IMG/VR virus record: IMGVR_UViG_3300022200_000065
Location: 1-50,248 of that record
From: a virus
Lineage: Duplodnaviria > Caudoviricetes
DNA: 50,248 nt
Reading direction: 5' to 3' (one strand)
This document shows, piece by piece, positions 11-50,226 of this stretch. A program made the position numbers and the translations under genes. How positions within the stretch are numbered: the first letter of the stretch is position 1; each line of letters starts with the position of its first letter. The notes under the pieces are model-generated. The model saw only the letters and a program-made list of their open reading frames with translations, did not search any database and had not been told where the DNA came from.

Positions 11-297
11 ATGATTAACGATGATGATTAATGATGATGATTAACGATGATGATTAACGATGATGATTAATGATGATGATTAACGATGATGATTAACGAT
101 GATGATTAACGATGATGATTAATGATGATGATTAGTGATGATGATTAACGATGATGATTAGTGATATGTGATATGTGATGTGTGATGTGTGATGTGCTGA
201 TGTGCTGATGTGTGATGTGTGATGTGTGATGTGCTGATGTGCTGATGATTAGTGATGTGCTGATGTGTGATGTGCTGATGATTAGTGATGATGATTA
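11..297. repeat. Terminal tandem-repeat block: 11 full copies of 13-bp GATGATGATTA(A/G)Y (20-162), then mixed 7/8-bp GATGTGT/GATGTGCT units
   Basis: Units read directly at 20, 33, 46, 59, 72, 85, 98, 111, 124, 137 and 150; no unique spacers; no long ORF. Confidence 0.97.
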
Positions 298-3327: not shown

Positions 3328-3381
3328 ACTGTTCCAACGGTATGACGTCATTATAGCTACTGTTCCAACCGTTGCAACAGT
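3328..3381. promoter_or_regulatory. Three ACNGTTNNAACNGT operator-like palindromes (3328, 3359, 3368)
   Basis: ACTGTTCCAACGGT, ACTGTTCCAACCGT and ACCGTTGCAACAGT overlap the +1 region, spacer and -35 of the early promoter. Confidence 0.7.
3350..3377 (-). promoter_or_regulatory. Sigma70-type early leftward promoter
   Basis: TTGCAA-16 bp-TATAAT on the minus strand, upstream of the early operon. Confidence 0.8.
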
Positions 3382-3505: not shown

Positions 3506-3656
3506 CGATTTACCGATTATCGAAAAAATCATAATCCCCTGGTTCACCAGGCCAGGACTGCTTTCGTCACCGGGTGCGTATAGGAATTAACCAGGGTTCA
3601 AATCACAAAGTGCTGCTTTAATGGAACAATCACCATTGCCCATGAATTTCTGTGGG

Positions 3657-4126
3657 TGAGACACTTTGAGACACTTCTTAAAAACGAAAGTGTCACACCG
3701 TCACCGTTGTAAGTCGTTGATTTGAAATAGAAATAAATGATGGTGTGACAGAATTTTTAAAAGTGTCACAGCAAGTGTCACACCCTATGTTATTGATTTA
3801 TATAATAAAAATGACCTTCTGAGACACTTTGAGCCAAAACCAGCAGGTAGCCATACTACTTTTTTATTCATTGGTAATCATTAATCATGGTTAATCATCA
3901 TTATCGTTGTGACAATTTCTTATATATTACTATTTAAGGTATATCTTTCTTTAAAAAGTAAATAAGTGTCTCAAAAAGGCAAAAAAGCTATATAAATCAA
4001 TAAGTTAAGGTGTGACAAATCGTGTGACACTTTTATATTGAAAGTGTCTCAGCTGGTTAATTCATTAGTAAAATCAGTAACTTACCAACTGGTCTGATGT
4101 GACACTTTGTTTTTGAAAGTGTCTCA
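3657..4126. other. Putative replication origin: TGWGACACTT iterons and IHF-like sites in dyad symmetry around an AT-rich core
   Basis: 11 perfect 10-mers (3657, 3667, 3688, 3761, 3773, 3820, 3964, 4023, 4042, 4098, 4117) plus degenerate copies; IHF-like sites at 3710, 3786, 3995, 4072; non-coding. Origin function is inferred. Confidence 0.7.
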
Positions 4127-4201
4127 TTTTACCGATTATGATAACAACTATAAATAACCGTGATGATAATCACCATCACCATCACCATTTATGATGTGAC
4201 A

Positions 4202-4400
4202 ACTGTTTAAACTGTGTGTACTGTTACAACTGTTGCAAGGTGCTGAACCAGCAAAGCCCGACCCGATGACGATAACCGACCGTGGCACCAGGTATAACCA
4301 GCATCAGTTAAGCTGACCGGTCACAGTAATCAGTATCACAGGTATCAGTGGTATCCGTTGTATCAGGTGTTCACTGTTTAAACGGTATCGACTGTACCGC
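4202..4400. repeat. Degenerate 9-bp-period repeats (ACNGT and GTATC lattices)
   Basis: ACTGT at 4202, 4211, 4220, 4229; GTATC at 4333, 4342, 4351, 4360; ACNGT at 4373, 4382, 4391. Confidence 0.75.
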
Positions 4401-4926: not shown

Positions 4927-5299
4927 CAAATGCTGTGACGCACTCGGCCAGCGCTCAGAAATTCAATCTGAATTAGACCGGCTTTATAATTATGAAGCTT
5001 TTGCAAGAATCGTTCACGAGTACATCCACGGTAATGATTTACTGCAACCTGACCTGGCCACCCTTTTAACCGCAGTGCGGGGGCTAGTAGCACCTGAATG
5101 GATTAGCGCCGACTTGGTTACACCAACTGAACCAGGGTGGTACTGGGTGCGAATGGGTTACGATACAATGACACCTGTGATGGCTGAATACTGTATCTTC
5201 CCGACATGCCAGCCATGTTGGTTACAACCTGGTGACTTTTACGGTAGCAGCTTTGCTGGCACACATTACATTAAAATCAAAAAACCGGTGGTCAAATGA
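4901..5299 (+). CDS. Hypothetical protein with DUF551-like C-terminal part
   Basis: EWIS..P.EPGWYWV motif typical of phage accessory proteins; the start may be 4913. Confidence 0.6.
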   Translation: METTMKLNNKCCDALGQRSEIQSELDRLYNYEAFARIVHEYIHGNDLLQPDLATLLTAVRGLVAPEWISADLVTPTEPGWYWVRMGYDTMTPVMAEYCIFPTCQPCWLQPGDFYGSSFAGTHYIKIKKPVVK

Positions 5300-6411
5300 A
5301 TGTACTCAGTTTGTTTGATGGTATTAGTTGTGGTCGGTTCTGTCTGGACAGACTGCGTGAACCCGTTGTGTATTACGCCAGCGAAATAAACGAACCGGCA
5401 CAGTTTGTCAGTAATAAGAATTATCCAGATATTATCAGACTGGGTGATGTGACCAACTGGCGGCAATGGCCACTAGACTGGTCCAGTATTGATTTACTGA
5501 TTGCCGGTTCACCCTGTCAGGGGTTTAGCACTGCTGGTAAGGCTGGCGGCACCAAAGCTGTGATTGATGGTGAGACACATATTATTGATAGCCGTAACCG
5601 GTATATGTGGGCTAAGGGGATGGGTGCTGAATTCCTCAGTGAGTCACATTTGTTTTGGGAATTCATATTAATCCTTGACCACGTAAAGAAGCACAACCCA
5701 CGTGTCAGATTCATGCTTGAAAACGTGAAGATGTCACAGAACAACATGAATATGATCACTGCAGCTGTTGGTGTAGAACCAGTATTCATTAATTCAGCAT
5801 TGGTCAGCGCACAAAACCGCCAGCGTTATTACTGGTGCAATTGGAAGGTGCCACAACCTGGTGACACAGGAATCATGCTGGCGGATATTTTGGAAATTAA
5901 CCCCAAGAATACAGTCGTTATGACTGACACATTTGTTAACCGACAAAAAGGTAGAAAGTGTTTAGTAGATAATTTCAACCGCAAAGCATCAAGTTTTAGC
6001 GCTATGGAGTACGTTAAAAACGGTAGGCAAGGTGACTACATAGCTATTCGCCCAGCAGCAATGGTAGGCCGTAAAATCCGTCAGGATGGCAAGCGTGATG
6101 ATTATTCTGACTTACCTATTGTGCAGATGTTGGAAGTGGGTGAGGGGTATAAAGCCCGGTGTTTATCCACGGTACAGAAAGACACGTTATACAGTGATAT
6201 GGAGCCTGGGCGCTACGTGGCTGCTGATGAACAAACCAGGTATCGTAAGTTCACACCCATCGAATGTGAACGACTGCAGGGGCTACCTGATAACTACACA
6301 GCCGGTGTCAGTAATACACAGCGTTACATGATGATCGGCAACGGTTGGCAGTGTGACACCATCGTTCACATTTTCTTCTGGTTATTGATTGATATGGTAG
6401 GTGATAAATGA
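5296..6411 (+). CDS. DNA (cytosine-5) methyltransferase
   Basis: Motifs I (LFDGISCG), IV (GSPCQGFS), VI (ENV), VIII (QNRQR), IX (ERLQGLP) and X (IGNGW). Confidence 0.95.
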   Translation: MNVLSLFDGISCGRFCLDRLREPVVYYASEINEPAQFVSNKNYPDIIRLGDVTNWRQWPLDWSSIDLLIAGSPCQGFSTAGKAGGTKAVIDGETHIIDSRNRYMWAKGMGAEFLSESHLFWEFILILDHVKKHNPRVRFMLENVKMSQNNMNMITAAVGVEPVFINSALVSAQNRQRYYWCNWKVPQPGDTGIMLADILEINPKNTVVMTDTFVNRQKGRKCLVDNFNRKASSFSAMEYVKNGRQGDYIAIRPAAMVGRKIRQDGKRDDYSDLPIVQMLEVGEGYKARCLSTVQKDTLYSDMEPGRYVAADEQTRYRKFTPIECERLQGLPDNYTAGVSNTQRYMMIGNGWQCDTIVHIFFWLLIDMVGDK

Positions 6412-7270: not shown

Positions 7271-7727
7271 CCCGGTAAAACGGTTAATTACTCAGTCTAA
7301 ACTGGCTGTCAACGATCTGGCATTATCCCTGGTTCAATCTGAAGTTGATGCCGGTGAACCTGGTATACAGTGCCGCAAGTTCGCCACTGGCAGACCGGTA
7401 AATGTCGGTAAGTCGGTTGCTGAAGCATTGAACCGGACAGCGTTTAAGTGGGCAGTGTTACTGATCGTTTGGTCTGAAGAATCAAACGGCAAAACCAGAG
7501 TGGTGACTAAATGGATTCGGTTGGCCAGCGACTACCACCAGTCTGATTTAAATGACTGGCTTAAAGACCAACATAGTGAAATGATACGCGCCGAAGATGC
7601 CAAAGGTAACCGGTACATTGATTGTGGTTGGGTCGGGCTACCTGTGCCGCCAGCATACGTTGATGATGCCACTGATGAAGTATTGAAAGCTAAACTATTG
7701 GACATCATTAATGGCCAAGTTCGATAA
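7248..7727 (+). CDS. Hypothetical protein (159 aa)
   Basis: GTG start with GAGGGG RBS; basic N-terminus. Confidence 0.75.
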   Translation: MSKRKRHNPVKRLITQSKLAVNDLALSLVQSEVDAGEPGIQCRKFATGRPVNVGKSVAEALNRTAFKWAVLLIVWSEESNGKTRVVTKWIRLASDYHQSDLNDWLKDQHSEMIRAEDAKGNRYIDCGWVGLPVPPAYVDDATDEVLKAKLLDIINGQVR

Positions 7728-8229
7728 AAACACCTGGCAGACGCCACTGCAGATATTCCAGACACTGAACAACGTGTACCCGATGACTGTGGACACAGCG
7801 GCGAGTGAATTAAACGCACTGCTGCCAGTGTTTATCACCAGGGAAATGGACAGCCTTGCGTTACCGTGGCGTATGTTCACCCCAGCTGGTTCATACGTCT
7901 GGAACAATCCGCCTTACAACAATATAAGCCCCTGGGTATATAAAGCTGCCAAAGAGCAGCGTAGCCACGTTGGTACTGTGCAGCTGGTGTTTAACGACCC
8001 ATCTGCCAGCTGGTATATAGCTGCTTATCAATCCTGCTGCGAAATGTGGCATGTGGTAGGGGGTCGAGTATCGTTCATCAACCCGGCCACCGGTAAACGT
8101 GTTTCAGGCAATAATCGGGGTAGCCTGATATTCATCTGGCACCCGATCAGCACCAGGCAAGATGCCCCACTTATCCGACACGTAACCCGTGATTCCCTCA
8201 TGTCTGCAAATAAACCTGTGTTTTTGTAA
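7711..8229 (+). CDS. dam: Phage DNA N6-adenine methyltransferase (phage Dam family)
   Basis: WQTP, D.AAS..NA, VWNNPPY and GRVSF motifs. Confidence 0.9.
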   Translation: MAKFDKNTWQTPLQIFQTLNNVYPMTVDTAASELNALLPVFITREMDSLALPWRMFTPAGSYVWNNPPYNNISPWVYKAAKEQRSHVGTVQLVFNDPSASWYIAAYQSCCEMWHVVGGRVSFINPATGKRVSGNNRGSLIFIWHPISTRQDAPLIRHVTRDSLMSANKPVFL

Positions 8230-8535: not shown

Positions 8536-9297
8536 ATGAGCAAGATTGAAGGTGTAACACTTAACAGCACGTATGCCAAACAGGGTGCTGAACTGGGTAT
8601 CAAGGTAAACAAAACCTTCCTGGTGCCGGTAGAACACATCTACATTGAACCAGGGTTTAACATTCGTGATCTAGACCCTGAACACGTTGAAGCAATCCGC
8701 CAAGGTTACGACGCTGGCCAGCCTATTCCACCAATCACCGTTAAGACCACACCGCAAGGTTTCAAAGTGCTGGACGGTCATCACCGTTATTCAGCAGCCC
8801 AGTTAGCTGGTGTTACCCGCATTGAATGTAAAGAGTTTGCCGGTACTGATGCTGATATCGTGGCGCTGATGGTGACATCATCACAGGGTAAAAACTTATC
8901 ACCCATTGAACGTGGTCGTGCTTATCAGCGTCTGATTAATATGGGTCGTGACGTTGCTGAAATCGCCCAGCTGGTTAAACGTAGTCGTGCCGATGTTGAT
9001 AATCATTTGTTGTTAATGAGCGCCGGTGATGTTGTGTTAAAGGCCGTCAATGCTGGTGTTGTTGGTTCATCTGCTGTTGTGGCTGAACTGCGTAAATCAG
9101 GTGCTGAAGGTGTGGCCACCGTTGAAGCTGCTGTGAAGGTAGCCACCGAACAGGGTAAAAAGGTTAAACCAGCTGATTTAAACCCATTCACTAAAGCAGA
9201 CATCACCCGCGTTATGGAAATCCTGTGTGGTATGAATGCTGCTGGGTTACCTGCTGAACTGGGCGCACTAATCAATAAATACCGTGGGGTGGTGTGA
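8536..9297 (+). CDS. ParB/Srx-like N-terminal domain protein with HTH
   Basis: FNIR, PPITV and LDGHHRY motifs, then LSPIER and an HTH-like segment. Confidence 0.88.
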   Translation: MSKIEGVTLNSTYAKQGAELGIKVNKTFLVPVEHIYIEPGFNIRDLDPEHVEAIRQGYDAGQPIPPITVKTTPQGFKVLDGHHRYSAAQLAGVTRIECKEFAGTDADIVALMVTSSQGKNLSPIERGRAYQRLINMGRDVAEIAQLVKRSRADVDNHLLLMSAGDVVLKAVNAGVVGSSAVVAELRKSGAEGVATVEAAVKVATEQGKKVKPADLNPFTKADITRVMEILCGMNAAGLPAELGALINKYRGVV

Positions 9298-12965: not shown

Positions 12966-13342
12966 CACTACAACACAAAACAATGCACAGCGCCGGTGCT
13001 GACTTATCAGCCACTAAGAAAGTCATCGTACCTGGTTACGCCACGGTACTGGTGCCAACCGGTGAACGTATGCCCAAAGATACACCTGCTGGGTTTTTCG
13101 GTATGTTAACGCTTCGGTCATCCGTGGCGCTGAAAACATCATTATTTTTGAAAAATGGTGTGGGTATCATTGACCGGGACTACCCTGATGAAATCATGGT
13201 GATGGTCTGCAACATAAGTCCTGAAGATTACGTGATTGAACAGGGTGATCGGATTGCACAACTGATTATCGTGCCATACATCTACGCTGGCGCTGTTCTG
13301 GACGTAACCAGGTCTGGTGGCTTCGGGTCAACAGATAAATGA
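12962..13342 (+). CDS. dut: Trimeric dUTPase
   Basis: Motifs SAGADL, RSS, GIIDRDY, GDRIAQL and RSGGFGST. Confidence 0.95.
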   Translation: MTLQHKTMHSAGADLSATKKVIVPGYATVLVPTGERMPKDTPAGFFGMLTLRSSVALKTSLFLKNGVGIIDRDYPDEIMVMVCNISPEDYVIEQGDRIAQLIIVPYIYAGAVLDVTRSGGFGSTDK

Positions 13343-13623
13343 AGGTAGTCACCCAGGGGAGTCAGTCAGCAGCAAGGCTGGCTCTTTTGCTACGGTTTAC
13401 CAAGATAGACAGCGAGGACATGATCGACGCCTTGAATGATTATCTAGTGAAGGGGTTGGCCAGTAGCACTGCTGCAGATATAAACGGGGTAGACCGGGCG
13501 AACTTAAACCGGGCTGTCAACACAATCAACGACGCTGCCATAGTTGTTGAGGAAATTAAAAACCTTGATTACCAGGGTAGTTATTTGAGTCACTTAAAGG
13601 ACAATTCTGATGCAAAAAGTTGA
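13339..13623 (+). CDS. PapB/FocB-family transcriptional regulator
   Basis: LLL.FTKI.SE..I.AL.DYLV.G.....AA...GV pattern of the PapB family. Confidence 0.75.
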   Translation: MKVVTQGSQSAARLALLLRFTKIDSEDMIDALNDYLVKGLASSTAADINGVDRANLNRAVNTINDAAIVVEEIKNLDYQGSYLSHLKDNSDAKS

Positions 13624-20672: not shown

Positions 20673-20948
20673 CTATTGTTGGTTATTTTTGGCGGTGATA
20701 TATTTCGGGTGTGCAAACACAAACTTTGCTTGTTCAATACAACTCAAGCTAATTCGTGATGATTTATCCCGTAAGTATTGACAGACTGTAGATTCTTTAA
20801 GACCGGTTGCAGCAATAACAGCTTCAAGGCCATGTTTCTCACACATCTGAACAAGTTCAGCTTGTCTTTCACGCATTGTTTCCCGTTCATCACGACTGGC
20901 GATAATCCGTTTAATGGTGATCTGCATATTTGTCATCGTTTCAACCAA
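20673..20948 (-). CDS. Small HTH-like DNA-binding protein
   Basis: GLEAVIAATGLKESTVCQYL helix-turn-helix pattern; the start may be 20936. Confidence 0.55.
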   Translation of the reverse strand: MVETMTNMQITIKRIIASRDERETMRERQAELVQMCEKHGLEAVIAATGLKESTVCQYLRDKSSRISLSCIEQAKFVFAHPKYITAKNNQQ

Positions 20949-24558: not shown

Positions 24559-24607
24559 AATGTAAATCCTCTTGGTTAGTTATCGGAGTCATTTAGCCGA
24601 TGCCACA

Positions 24608-24673
24608 AATACTGGATGATGTAATTTTAAATGTCAAATTTTATTTTACACTTTTTTTGTTGTCTGTTAGTCT
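24608..24673. promoter_or_regulatory. Divergent sigma70-type promoters of the replication module
   Basis: Plus strand TTTACA(24645)-17-TGn-TAGTCT; minus strand TTGACA-17-CAGTAT (weaker -10). Confidence 0.55.
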
Positions 24674-24697
24674 TGCCTCATTCACAGAGGATTTCCA

Positions 24698-26403: not shown

Positions 26404-28473
26404 ATGTCCATTACATTCCCGGCAAAGCGTAAAACAGAATGGCCCTGGCCAAACGATTACGGCTACGATGAAGAATCATACCCAAACTTTTACAGTCTTG
26501 CTGCAAGGCATATTCAGACAAATGCACTTTACGTTTTCGAGATTAGCGACTGGCGGGATGACACTGACGCATTGATAAACTGGATGTACTGGTTACATCA
26601 GAATAAATGCAGGATGCTTGGTTTTAATAATGTTGGTTATGATTACCTGTTGATGCACTTTATTTTTATGAATTGCAAAGCCTGGGGAAGTTATAGCGGT
26701 AGTCAAAAGGCTTACATGATTTACCAATATTCAGCAAACCTTTTTAAAGGTGAAAACGAAACTGAAGATGGATACCGTGAAAGACGTTACAAAACGTCAA
26801 TCAGACCTAAAGATGTGATTATTCCACAAATTGATTTATTCAAGATTTACCACTTTGACAACCAGGCCAAAAATACCAGTTTAAAAGTTTTACAAATCAA
26901 CATGAGGTCGAAGAACGTTAGAGATTTACCAATTCCACCAGGTACACGAATTACTGCTGAACAAAGGCCGGTGTTGCTTTTGTACAACGTTAACGATACT
27001 GATGAAACCATTGGGTTTGCAATGTTCAGCGTTGACGAAATAAAGCTGCGGGAAACCATGTCAGCCAAGTTTGGTATTGATATGACCAACTTCAGTGAGG
27101 GTAAAATGGGTGAAGAAATAATCAGGCTGCAGCTGAATAACGCTGGCCTGAACACCCGAGGCAAAACACCAAGGGCGTCGATTGCACTTCGTGATGTAAT
27201 TTTTCCGTATATCAGATTCAATCACCCCGAGTTTCAACGAGTTCACCAATTCTTACTGGGTGAAGTGATCACTAAAACCAAACTAGACAAAAAGGACGAT
27301 GACACTGAAGGTTACCCATGTGCTGTAATCAATGGGTTTGGTTGGCAGTTTGGTCGTGGTGGTATGCACGCTTCTGTTTTAAGTTCGATTATCAAAGCTG
27401 ACGATTATTACGAAATTATTGACATTGACGTTATCAGCTTTTACCCGAGAACCAGCATCGTCAACAAGACTTACCCAGCACACTTAGGGCCGCAATTCTG
27501 TGAAGAATACGACGGTGTTTTCACAATGCGTGGCCAATACCCTAAAGATAAATTTCCGATGGAAAACTTGGCACTGAAATATTCTTTGAACGTACCTTAT
27601 GGTAAGTCAAACAGCCCGTTTAGCTTTCTCTATGACCCACAGTACACAATGACTACGACGATCAACTGTCAATTATTGATTTGTATGTTGGGTGAATGGT
27701 TAATGCAAATACCAGACATCAGTTTTATTCAGGTGAACACAGACGGTATCACATTCAAGGTACCACGTGTTTTCCGTGGTCATGTTGAAAGTATTTGTAA
27801 AGCTTGGGAACAGTTCACCTGTCTGGAACTCGAATACGCTTTTTATCAGGCTATGTATATTCGTGATGTAAACAACTACATTGCCCACGCTGTTAACGGT
27901 AAAATCAAAAGCAAAGGTGCCTATGTTCACAAGGAAATCCCGTGGCACAAAGACCACAGCAGCGTAATTATTGCAAGGGCTGTTGAAGGGTATTTGTTAC
28001 GTGGTGAAGATGTTGTACAGCAAATTATGGCTTGTCGTGACCCGTTTGATTTCATGATCAAGGCCAAGGTACCACGGTCATCAAAACTTATGATGTTTAA
28101 CCAAGATGGAACCAGAACGGAACTACAGAACACCACCAGATATTATGTTGCTGTTAGTGGTGGTCGTCTGGTTAAAATCATGCCACCAACACCGGCAATG
28201 CGTGAACACTGGAATACCGGCACCCATTACATCAGGCACCGTGACCAGGATTACAAGGTTGTGAAACCTGATGGTAAACGTCCTGCTAAAACTTATGACC
28301 TGGTGCCACTGAATCAGATAGCACCCGAACCCTACGACCGGGAGATTTCATTGGGTAGTAAATGGCTGGCTGCAGACTGTGCCAATGTTGATGATTTCAA
28401 TTGGTCAAACCTGAATTACAACTATTATATCGAAGAAGCACGCAAATTAATTGACCCACTGTTAGAACAGTGA
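26404..28473 (+). CDS. Family B DNA polymerase with 3'-5' exonuclease domain
   Basis: YDEE, GFN...YD, YN.ND exonuclease motifs; DVISFYP, K..LN..YG and NTDG polymerase motifs. Confidence 0.93.
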   Translation: MSITFPAKRKTEWPWPNDYGYDEESYPNFYSLAARHIQTNALYVFEISDWRDDTDALINWMYWLHQNKCRMLGFNNVGYDYLLMHFIFMNCKAWGSYSGSQKAYMIYQYSANLFKGENETEDGYRERRYKTSIRPKDVIIPQIDLFKIYHFDNQAKNTSLKVLQINMRSKNVRDLPIPPGTRITAEQRPVLLLYNVNDTDETIGFAMFSVDEIKLRETMSAKFGIDMTNFSEGKMGEEIIRLQLNNAGLNTRGKTPRASIALRDVIFPYIRFNHPEFQRVHQFLLGEVITKTKLDKKDDDTEGYPCAVINGFGWQFGRGGMHASVLSSIIKADDYYEIIDIDVISFYPRTSIVNKTYPAHLGPQFCEEYDGVFTMRGQYPKDKFPMENLALKYSLNVPYGKSNSPFSFLYDPQYTMTTTINCQLLICMLGEWLMQIPDISFIQVNTDGITFKVPRVFRGHVESICKAWEQFTCLELEYAFYQAMYIRDVNNYIAHAVNGKIKSKGAYVHKEIPWHKDHSSVIIARAVEGYLLRGEDVVQQIMACRDPFDFMIKAKVPRSSKLMMFNQDGTRTELQNTTRYYVAVSGGRLVKIMPPTPAMREHWNTGTHYIRHRDQDYKVVKPDGKRPAKTYDLVPLNQIAPEPYDREISLGSKWLAADCANVDDFNWSNLNYNYYIEEARKLIDPLLEQ

Positions 28474-28491
28474 TTATACTGTTGCAACAGT
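28451..28491 (+). promoter_or_regulatory. Promoter of the Phd-like gene with two operator-like palindromes
   Basis: TTGACC-18 bp-TATACT; ACTGTTAGAACAGT at 28458 and perfect ACTGTTGCAACAGT at 28478. Confidence 0.75.
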
Positions 28492-28507
28492 CAGTGAGGG
28501 TTAGACG

Positions 28508-28735
28508 ATGATCATTAAAGGTTTGAAGTATGCAAGGGCAAGGTTTACCGAATTGGTGGACGCTGCGCGTGATGGTAACGAGTCCATTTTTATTGAAATG
28601 GGCAACAGTCGTAAACTGAATGTAGGTTACAAACTGGTGAAAATGACACCTGAAGAATTGACCGAAGCAGTGAAACAGCATCCTGAACTTTGCATACCGA
28701 AACCAGGTCTACCACAACCGAAGGTATTAATATGA
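28508..28735 (+). CDS. Phd/YefM-family antitoxin-like DNA-binding protein (orphan)
   Basis: ARARFTELVDAARDGNESIFI matches the Phd/YefM N-terminal pattern (AR..L..L.D.V..GE...I); GAGGG RBS. Confidence 0.65.
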   Translation: MIIKGLKYARARFTELVDAARDGNESIFIEMGNSRKLNVGYKLVKMTPEELTEAVKQHPELCIPKPGLPQPKVLI

Positions 28736-29028
28736 AATGTGATTGCCCTGGTTGTGTTCGAGAAAGAAAAGGCTTAGGTGGTTATCAACCATGTAGCAAA
28801 TCACCTAAGTTATCCAACCCACCACAAAACAAAGGAAACATTATGACTACTACTGTAATTGTTCAGGCGCATTGTGCCAGTGATAAAGAAGTTATCGTGA
28901 CTATCGAAGGTCTTAACGACGGGGATGGTAATGACACTGTGAAAGTGTTGCAGGACGGCGAGACTTACCAAAACGTTGTTTTCGATGACCGGGTTATTTC
29001 CATCTGTGAACAGTACAAAGCTGATTAA
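28732..29028 (+). CDS. Hypothetical protein (start 28732 or 28843)
   Basis: ATG 28732 overlaps the upstream stop; ATG 28843 has an AAGGA RBS. Confidence 0.65.
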   Translation: MKCDCPGCVRERKGLGGYQPCSKSPKLSNPPQNKGNIMTTTVIVQAHCASDKEVIVTIEGLNDGDGNDTVKVLQDGETYQNVVFDDRVISICEQYKAD

Positions 29029-29035
29029 TTTAGTC

Positions 29036-29075
29036 GCCCCAGGTAAACTATCCCTGTAAGACCTGGGGCATTTTT
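29036..29075 (+). terminator. Intrinsic terminator at the convergence of replication and late operons
   Basis: GCCCCAGGT/ACCTGGGGC 9-bp stem followed by ATTTTT. Confidence 0.75.
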
Positions 29076-29536
29076 CAAGCGTGTCGTGATACCTTTTCGA
29101 TGTACTTTTCAACAGTACCTTTACCTAACTCAGTGTTGTAATACTTTTTCCAATACCGAGCACGACCTTCCACACTGTCTGGAATTTCTTCGGGAATTAA
29201 CATCAGTTTCAACCGGGTCATTGCCAGAGCTAACAATGGGTCATACGCTAAATCTGCCAGCTGCAGTTTGTCCAAATCATACCCGAGCATATCTTTCAGG
29301 CGTTGTTTGTTTTTCGGCCTTGTGCGCTGCTGTACGTCGTCAAAACCAATCTGGTCGAACTGGGTCAGACCGACACCGAGTTTGTCAGGGTGTGCGTCAG
29401 GATATTCACCACTGTTCGTTTCAACAGCAGCAAATTCAATTAGCGCACGAGTGACGTTATACCCGCCGCCGAATACAGAAACAACCTTGCGGGAAAATAC
29501 AGCAATATCCGATTTCATTTTTAATCCGTAGTTCAT
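29075..29536 (-). CDS. Putative endolysin (lysozyme/transglycosylase-like fold)
   Basis: AAVET..G catalytic-Glu context, G.GLTQFD and YWKKYYNT..GKG; end of the late operon. Confidence 0.65.
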   Translation of the reverse strand: MNYGLKMKSDIAVFSRKVVSVFGGGYNVTRALIEFAAVETNSGEYPDAHPDKLGVGLTQFDQIGFDDVQQRTRPKNKQRLKDMLGYDLDKLQLADLAYDPLLALAMTRLKLMLIPEEIPDSVEGRARYWKKYYNTELGKGTVEKYIEKVSRHA

Positions 29537-49477: not shown

Positions 49478-49941
49478 GTGTGTTCATATGCTGACAACTT
49501 AGTTAAAATATCTTCAATGTCGGCGTTTAGGATTTCTGCAACTTTATCTTCAGACTGATGGGCAAGCAAACCATTTAACCGGTTTGGTTGTGATGTTAGT
49601 GACGCACGGACATCAATTAATGCGGCAGAAAATTCAACCATCAAATCATCAATGACGACTAATTGTTCACGTTTTACAGCAAGATCTAATTCAGCTGATA
49701 ACGCTAAAGCAACTTCACGACGTCGTTTTGCTTCAGACGCTGACATGGTTTTTTCATCAACATCGGTAAGACCACCTTTGTCGATATGCCACTGTAAAAT
49801 ATCAGCGATAACAAACCGGTCATTCCATTGGCCATCAGCACCGACAACATACGGCATACCTTCATCACACCATTTACGCAAAGTGTAAGGTGTGACATTT
49901 AATATCTTAGCGGTTGTTGCCTGGTTTAATTGGTCGCTCAT
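49456..49941 (-). CDS. Terminase small subunit, Nu1-like
   Basis: N-terminal wHTH (A.ILNVT..TL..W..EGMP) plus coiled coil; upstream of gpA. Confidence 0.9.
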   Translation of the reverse strand: MSDQLNQATTAKILNVTPYTLRKWCDEGMPYVVGADGQWNDRFVIADILQWHIDKGGLTDVDEKTMSASEAKRRREVALALSAELDLAVKREQLVVIDDLMVEFSAALIDVRASLTSQPNRLNGLLAHQSEDKVAEILNADIEDILTKLSAYEHTCQETYD

Positions 49942-50173
49942 TTAATTTGGCCTTTGTCTGTTTCAGCATCATTAAAACCTTATCGTGACCGGTTATACAA
50001 CCAGGGTCATCATCATCATCATCCCATCGTTTATTACAAAAACTGCAATGATAACAACGGTTAGCATAATCATGGAGTAAATCACGGTGTTCAATCTTCA
50101 TAGTCGTCACCATCATTTTTAAAATTTTATGATTAGTGCAACCACAGTTGATTTTGACGGTAATCATTGTCAA
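49907..50173 (-). CDS. Small Cys-rich hypothetical protein (start uncertain)
   Basis: C..C..C...C motif; lies between the promoter and terS. Confidence 0.45.
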   Translation of the reverse strand: MTMITVKINCGCTNHKILKMMVTTMKIEHRDLLHDYANRCYHCSFCNKRWDDDDDDPGCITGHDKVLMMLKQTKAKLNERPIKPGNNR

Positions 50174-50193: not shown

Positions 50194-50226
50194 ATTATGG
50201 TTCAAATGGATTACGGTTGCAACAGT
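50194..50226 (-). promoter_or_regulatory. Sigma70-type promoter of the packaging operon with an overlapping operator-like palindrome
   Basis: TTGCAA-17 bp-CATAAT on the minus strand; ACGGTTGCAACAGT at 50213-50226 covers the -35. Confidence 0.65.

Follow-up and report, generated by a model that had tools for sequence, protein, structure and literature searches.

The antitoxins Phd (P1) and YefM (E. coli, S. aureus; PF02604) are small proteins that work within addiction modules, each with a toxin gene, a long toxin-binding C-terminus, and a single promoter at which paired palindromes lie over the core elements. The C-terminal toxin-binding part of these two antitoxins is much longer than 18 residues. 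In a reported YefM-DNA crystal structure, Arg10 reads palindrome guanines, the β2-β3 wing lies in the minor groove, and known YefM/Phd operators have GTAC cores and occupy 6-8 bp per dimer (PMC7544224). Canonical P1 Phd-Doc is reported to engage two adjacent palindromic sites (PMC13034048). Here we describe the complete virus record IMGVR_UViG_3300022200_000065, analyzed over its whole length of 50,248 bp (the window), in which a confirmed open reading frame (ORF) on the plus strand (28508..28735) encodes a 75-amino-acid (75-aa) Phd/YefM-like protein. Two copies of a 14-bp palindrome lie on the promoter of this gene, and further copies lie on early and late promoters. We are highly confident that these palindromes constitute a genuine phage-encoded operator regulon shared by a whole clade. 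Our foremost candidate for the repressor that reads them is the 75-aa protein, and we put the chance that it does so at about even.

The operator is two-fold symmetric, with the 14-bp consensus ACNGTT-NN-AACNGT and ten fixed bases. A scan of the window with the pattern ACNGTTNNAACNGT found nine exact copies, starting at 3328, 3359, 3368, 4202, 4220, 4373, 28458, 28478 and 50213, against 0.05 by chance, and none of 100 dinucleotide shuffles of the window attained nine. A preliminary description of this DNA had listed the same nine by eye and had put the expectation far below one per 50 kb; its coordinates and sequences are all exact, and its estimate is borne out. When one mismatch was permitted there were still nine sites, with 3.25 expected, so the motif is sharply bounded in this genome. 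By our own greedy ORF call, in which 92.7% of the window is ORF and 7.3% non-coding, eight of the nine sites are fully intergenic; the exception, 28458, overlaps the final 16 bases of the DNA polymerase ORF (26404..28473). The earlier statement that the copies lie at promoter or control regions is supported. An RNA hairpin or terminator role for the palindromes was rejected, since a 2-nt loop does not allow the 6-bp stem to form, and Rfam had no match in the window. The LexA box has the spacing CTGT-N8-ACAG and was rejected too, the operator being CTGT-N4-ACAG. A pair of independent 7-bp AACNGTT units is not supported, as neither A nor T is preferred at the positions flanking the site on the outside.

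The 3´ end of the DNA polymerase gene contains the promoter of the 75-aa gene. This promoter is sigma-70-like, on the plus strand at 28451..28480, with the -35 element TTGACC (28451-28456), an 18-bp spacer and the -10 element TATACT (28475-28480), giving 10 of 12 matches. Operator copy 1, ACTGTTAGAACAGT (28458..28471), occupies the promoter spacer and overlaps the last polymerase codons; copy 2, ACTGTTGCAACAGT (28478..28491), covers the -10 element and the expected transcription start. Neither palindrome, nor any of those below, is assigned a strand. The two start 20 bp apart, as had been claimed for the region upstream of this gene, and the pair is set inside TTGACC-18-TATACT. A promoter scan of 28000-29200 gave one match against 2.2 in shuffles, which is not significant alone; the promoter call is supported because its layout is conserved in all eight sequences of a polymerase 3´-end alignment, where TTGACCC (the -35 block) and the block TGTTGnAACAGT are invariant in 8/8 genomes. 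At the polymerase 3´ end of Pseudoalteromonas phage B8b the promoter and operator layout is identical to that of the aligned eight. Relatives carry an exact or degenerate operator at the position equivalent to copy 1, and all nine genomes or fragments keep a promoter with an operator ahead of the Phd-like gene or of the two-gene operon to which it belongs. Contig variants listed near the gene (four runs; short contigs) fall at or before 28405 or at or after 28495, and are not counted as constraint. In two wastewater or metagenome runs (X6, X9), other contigs match only the 34-bp double operator (28458-28491), with four differences; TTGACA precedes the double operator there, and a different ribosome-binding site and gene start follow it, so the operator pair serves other promoters in co-occurring relatives.

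Three further exact pattern matches (3328, 3359 and 3368, together 3328..3381) lie on a sigma-70-like leftward early promoter, TTGCAA-16-TATAAT, on the minus strand (3377..3350): its -35 element is within site 3368, site 3359 is in the spacer, and site 3328 is just 3´ of the start. Two operators (4202 and 4220, together 4202..4233) lie just downstream of putative rightward promoter-like matches at 4113-4170, and a single one (4373..4386) is found about 100 bp 5´ of the first rightward gene (4490). At 50213..50226, the TTGCAA at the center of an operator doubles as the -35 element of a putative promoter for the terminase and structural operon (minus strand; TTGCAA at 50222..50217 and CATAAT at 50199..50194, spaced by 17 bp; assigned by eye). 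The preliminary description had proposed control of early, middle and late promoters. Sites are present on early and late promoters; the "middle" part is not supported, the divergent replication promoters at 24559-24697 being without an operator site in the window. A one-mismatch site, ACCCTTATAACNGT, is kept at the helicase gene start in three relatives (L001 33687, L002 27516, L003 29662), and its window counterpart is absent from 24559-24697.

No nucleotide-level relative of the window was found in the phage collection searched. The nearest phages by protein are Shewanella phage 1/44 and five isolates of the Nahant collection named "Vibrio phage", whose deposited hosts are Shewanella for four and Enterovibrio for one; their polymerases are 50-52% identical to that of the window. 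The window and these relatives have replication and structural modules in common and no early-region genes. Public runs that contain the window are freshwater and wastewater metagenomes. Exact operator copies number 12, 14, 17, 11 and 12 in five complete relatives, the genome with 14 sites (L002) being labelled partial, and eight in a more distant IMG/VR genome (G002) with a polymerase 39% identical to that of the window; the 20-kb partial record of B8b has four and an 8.9-kb uncultured fragment has one. Seven complete genomes, in which non-coding DNA makes up 5.5-8.3%, have 83 exact sites, and 63 of these lie mostly outside coding sequence; the motif is not common in coding DNA. A partner lies within 40 bp of 59 of the 83, with commonest start-to-start spacings of 20 bp (10 cases), 16 bp (4) and 15 bp (3). 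In two relatives (L002 and L003) the top repeated 9-mers genome-wide are words of the motif.

The clade examined comprised nine members (the window, 1/44, four Nahant isolates, B8b and two uncultured contigs), and all nine have both the Phd-like gene and the motif, the homologue in 1/44 being S144_46. The fifth Nahant isolate, 1.050.O, has the gene by tblastn; the motif scan covered the other four. The outgroup phages Sasha, MSW-3, fEV-1 and KP13-27 have the same polymerase and primase module, with motif counts of 0, 0, 0 and 1 respectively, and a profile of the Phd-like family had no match at E ≤ 1 in any of the four, so the co-conservation of gene and motif that had been proposed as a check was found. 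A paired-site pattern scan of viral contigs returned 45 loci, nearly all of them unrelated 9-bp tandem repeats; two genomes with a single operator pair each (G001 and G004) were rejected as unrelated phages without the Phd-like gene. The operator class most likely belongs to a siphovirus clade related to Shewanella phage 1/44. A search of full-text literature, with coverage outside subscription journals, found no description of the motif or of a Phd/YefM-type phage-wide regulator.

Like Phd and YefM, the 75-aa protein is small, has an N-terminal A-R-x-x-F/L-(S/T)-E-L motif with Arg10, is predicted to continue with two strands and then a helix, and has a promoter with paired palindromes over the core elements. 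Its residues ~1-57 are the predicted folded part (helix, β-hairpin, helix), and residues 58-75 form an 18-residue proline-rich tail. An AlphaFold2 model from a nine-sequence alignment reached a predicted local distance difference test score (pLDDT) of 79, with helix 2-21, strands 26-31 and 37-43, and helix 48-57. Arg10 is invariant (7/7 and 9/9 aligned family proteins) and aligns with position 10 of the PF02604 profile and with A9-R10 of YefM, in alignments that are themselves sub-threshold; a conserved GN(D/S)RK hairpin loop is the counterpart of the YefM β2-β3 wing. Five of seven structure neighbors in the ESM Atlas are named Phd/YefM or prevent-host-death, with template-modeling (TM) scores of 0.54-0.62, and one more is a cluster rich in PF02604. 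A profile search of the PDB gave chains of P1 Phd at E 0.04-0.07, and no Phd match when the narrower alignment A1 was used. PF02604 is matched at E ≤ 1 by five of nine family members, all sub-threshold, and no helix-turn-helix (HTH) family is among the Pfam matches of the 75-aa protein at E ≤ 1. At least four Phd/YefM-type entries (3hs2, 3hry, 2odk, 7v5y) are among the 65 chains that VIA aligned at Z ≥ 2, with Z of 2.2-2.6, and several other Phd/YefM chains score 2.0-2.3.

Several of these results count against the assignment. The Pfam match to PF02604 (E 1.7e-3, residues 1-29) scores 18.5 bits, or 15.3 in another scan, against a cut-off of 29.8, and TIGR01552 scores 14.4 against 20.8, with sub-threshold matches in four of nine Phd-like proteins. 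The AlphaFold2 model from the single sequence was uninformative (pLDDT 43). Foldseek found no PDB match at E ≤ 0.001, with Phd 3hs2 reaching TMt 0.53, the best VIA-align score (Z 3.7) belongs to an unrelated chain while Phd at 2.6 and the other Phd/YefM chains are within noise, and hhalign against a narrow YefM profile gave E 0.099 and 0.27. The tests are consistent in direction and register, and every one is below its significance or curated threshold. The Phd/YefM identity proposed in the preliminary description thus stands as a consistent signal and falls short as a formal family assignment; we consider it probable that the protein has the Phd/YefM fold.

The family itself is small, with eight representatives among 1.84 billion proteins and two proteins in a word-based search. 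Scans of viral contigs with the window protein and with P0005 gave no relatives, whereas P0004 gave marginal matches (E 5e-4) and P0008 a 17-residue match, none with motif sites. A search with alignment A1 added one new fragment, of 8.9 kb, and genome contigs gave nothing.

The Phd-like gene differs from Phd and YefM in what surrounds it. No adjacent cognate toxin (of the Doc or YoeB/RelE/ParE type) and no long C-terminal toxin-binding region were found, and family scans of the neighbors recognized no toxin, as the preliminary description had held. A 98-aa ORF on the plus strand (28732..29028; alternative start 28843) overlaps the stop of the Phd-like gene by ATGA, and has no family match, no counterpart in relatives and no evidence of being a toxin. 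The neighbors of the gene vary between relatives: it is preceded by a gene of 90-92 aa or 200 aa, or has no small partner, and in two genomes (L004 and L005) there is no small partner gene on either side. The upstream genes of 90-200 aa had no match to a toxin family. Where Phd and YefM regulate one promoter, the operators here number 8-17 per complete genome, and where they belong to addiction modules, this phage has no detected integrase or CI-type repressor (Pfam and PHROG scans of the window), in line with the earlier observation that no CI repressor was visible. As with the sites engaged by P1 Phd-Doc, the operators in this clade are usually paired.

Which protein reads the operator has to be decided among few candidates. 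The ten motif bases are identical across the clade while early genes are not conserved, so the reader should be a conserved small protein, and the candidates of that kind are the Phd-like protein, an HTH protein, a PapB-like regulator and a cysteine-rich 88-aa protein. Of these genes only the Phd-like one has its own dedicated, conserved, operator-covered promoter. Other observations count against its product as the reader. Within the clade the motif is accompanied by the HTH and PapB-like genes as fully as by the Phd-like gene, and since every conserved gene shows this pattern, co-occurrence fails to single out the Phd-like gene. Each operator at the promoter of the Phd-like gene has one mismatch in L004 and in L005. 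The operators known for YefM/Phd are GTAC-core palindromes, in contrast to the 14-bp ACNGTT-NN-AACNGT found here, and a repressor on the -35 element of a late promoter demands extra explanation. Lastly, a 14-bp palindrome would suit an HTH dimer. The preliminary description had itself named HTH, PapB-like and ParB-like proteins as possible binders; the analysis weakens each of the three.

The operators might be read by the PapB-like regulator (13339..13623, plus strand), with the Phd-like gene merely a regulated early gene, for example one encoding an antitoxin mimic directed against a host toxin-antitoxin defense. PHROG annotates the PapB-like protein as a transcriptional regulator, its gene is in all five clade members searched (the window, L001, L002, L004 and G002) and not in Sasha, and phage-borne orphan antitoxin-like anti-defense proteins have already been published, as one report indicates (PMC13309987). 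We nevertheless regard this reading as unlikely. The window PapB-like protein is only 30-40% identical to the copies of relatives, occupies another genome position, and has no tblastn match in relatives at 1e-3; it is closer (40-47%) to copies in Pseudoalteromonas phage ACA1, Vibrio phage 1.184.A and Shewanella phage X14, whose genomes have no motif copies. Its gene ends the rightward early operon in the window but in 5/5 relatives is flanked by the genes for the small and large terminase subunits, a difference in position that suggests independent acquisition. PapB-family proteins form oligomers on repeated AT-rich sites, not on 14-bp palindromes, and the 18-residue, proline-rich tail of the Phd-like protein counts against a role as antitoxin mimic.

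The reader might also be the 91-aa XRE/CII-like HTH protein (20673..20948, minus strand), encoded immediately upstream of the primase gene, which could bind the 14-bp palindrome as a Cro-like dimer. Such palindromes are typical of small HTH dimers, for example 434 Cro; the protein is conserved in every clade member tested, its presumed recognition helix is highly conserved, and its Atlas neighbors are HTH_3/CII-like. Its placement upstream of primase is conserved from the clade to Sashavirus (Sasha KX987158 45461-45634) and Klebsiella phage KP13-27; in MSW-3 a TetR_N-like small gene is at the equivalent position. Motif counts in the first two are 0 for Sasha (the homologue is gp69) and 1 for KP13-27, and homologues in phages nearly devoid of the motif indicate that the HTH gene travels with primase and not with the motif. 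The homologue E-values in these outgroups are marginal (2.5e-4, 2.5e-5), and the specificity of the HTH protein could have changed. The promoter region of the HTH operon (24559-24697) has no operator in the window, and we find it distinctly unlikely that this protein is the reader.

A host transcription factor might instead bind the motif, so that the phages exploit a host regulon. The hosts named in related records are Shewanella, Enterovibrio and Pseudoalteromonas, all Gammaproteobacteria. Among the genomes of 185,579 species, however, paired motifs are found in only 12 stretches, none of them titled Shewanella, Vibrio, Pseudoalteromonas or enteric, and the sole gammaproteobacterial match proves to be a tandem repeat with a 9-bp unit. 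A sample of 151 gammaproteobacterial genomes, which may not include the true hosts, has 0-10 motifs per genome, mostly no more than in a reversed-pattern control (0-34); a few genomes exceed the control, such as G119 with six against one. (Two of the sampled genomes, G044 and G146, are unpublished, and the claim is independent of both.) A host factor with few chromosomal sites would be compatible with these scans. The source metagenomes of the window are from freshwater and wastewater, yet its motif is unchanged, and a host factor as reader appears very unlikely to us.

There is a slimmer chance yet that the reader is the cysteine-rich 88-aa protein (49907..50173, minus strand), acting like P2 Ogr as a late regulator with a zinc finger. 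Its gene is the first of the late operon and lies directly downstream of site 50213, and the protein has six cysteines, a weak match to the zinc-binding C-terminus of Hsp33, and partial conservation (four of five relatives over 39-50 residues, and G002). The conserved stretch is short, however, L001 has no match at 1e-3, no DNA-binding family was matched, and a late protein of this kind accounts for operators on the early promoters and on its own no better than the other candidates do. The ParB-like protein (8536..9297, plus strand) was rejected as binder, as L002 has 14 sites and no ParB-like gene by tblastn at 1e-3 (L002, again, being labelled partial).

We return to the Phd-like protein as the reader, which would then be a divergent DNA-binding domain of the Phd/YefM type, with no toxin partner and without its former toxin-binding tail. 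The motif, its placement, its conservation and the joint occurrence with the gene are observed; the fold, the dimer, the identity of the reader and repression belong to the model. In this model, host RNA polymerase would initiate from the strong early promoters, and also from the one within the 3´ end of the polymerase gene. As the Phd-like protein builds up, presumably as a dimer, it would occupy the paired operators, and cooperative binding is probable because most operator partners are 15-20 bp apart. Binding at the spacer and -10/+1 operators would limit its own synthesis, and binding on the -35 element, the spacer or the early transcribed region would throttle both early operons, leftward and rightward. 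At the late promoter, the one site on the -35 element may delay or modulate the structural genes. Functionally, the protein would be a Cro-like shut-off or timing factor.

The proposal has partial counterparts elsewhere. The Cro proteins of lambda and 434 are likewise small dimers with operators on divergent early promoters and on their own, turning down early transcription; they differ in carrying the HTH_3 signature, which is absent from the 75-aa protein, and here sites are also on a late promoter, with no CI partner or lysogeny module detected. The P1 C1 repressor, a 283-aa protein that maintains lysogeny from asymmetric 17-mer operators, resembles the proposed regulator in that a single operator type is placed over many phage promoters, whereas the operators here are symmetric 14-mers and the phages show no sign of lysogeny. 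Orphan antitoxin-like anti-defense proteins, such as DarG-like ones, are also phage-borne members of antitoxin families without a toxin. They are reported to act on host toxins or their products, whereas in the protein described here the toxin-binding part is gone and the DNA-binding part is conserved.

Other repeats and palindromes were seen in these genomes. Dense tandem repeats fill window positions 11-290, first a 13-nt unit, ATGATTAACGATG, in 11.5 copies and then 7-nt GTGATGT-type units; the stretch is flanked by the last leftward gene and, across the record ends, by the late promoter. Beside their own late-promoter sites, relatives carry blocks of ATCATC-type repeats. At 3650-4130, within a 1.2-kb gene-free gap, about 12 GTGTCACA / GAGACAC(TT) repeats in both orientations were noted by eye. 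They resemble iterons and could be a target of the primase-linked HTH protein. The rightward early operon encodes two DNA methyltransferases (5296-6411 and 7711-8229), one a C-5 cytosine enzyme and one Dam-like and N6-adenine-specific. In G002 (loci L052-L054) a second palindrome, (C)TAACGTTA(G), is over-represented, with up to 12 copies over 2.5-37 kb; this palindrome has no relation to the operator and may be a word linked to methylation or restriction. Edwardsiella phage MSW-3 (L059) has TTGAC-N6-GTCAA five times, about 140-fold above expectation, and this may be an operator of its own.

Taken as a whole, the picture would be of an antitoxin fold without toxin or tail that has been recruited as the master timer of transcription in a clade of aquatic siphoviruses that appear to be non-temperate, acting through a new class of 14-bp operator at 8-17 promoter sites per genome, early, late and its own. 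We offer this tentatively, at a little under an even chance. Shewanella phage 1/44, a deposited isolate from Baltic Sea ice, may still be cultivable, which opens the question of the regulator to direct testing. Whichever protein binds, the conserved operator set is a map of regulated promoters in poorly annotated phages. If the Phd-like protein does read it, an antitoxin DNA-binding domain would have been exapted from a single-promoter autorepressor to a genome-wide phage regulator, and this would be a third fate of orphan phage antitoxins, besides addiction and anti-defense.

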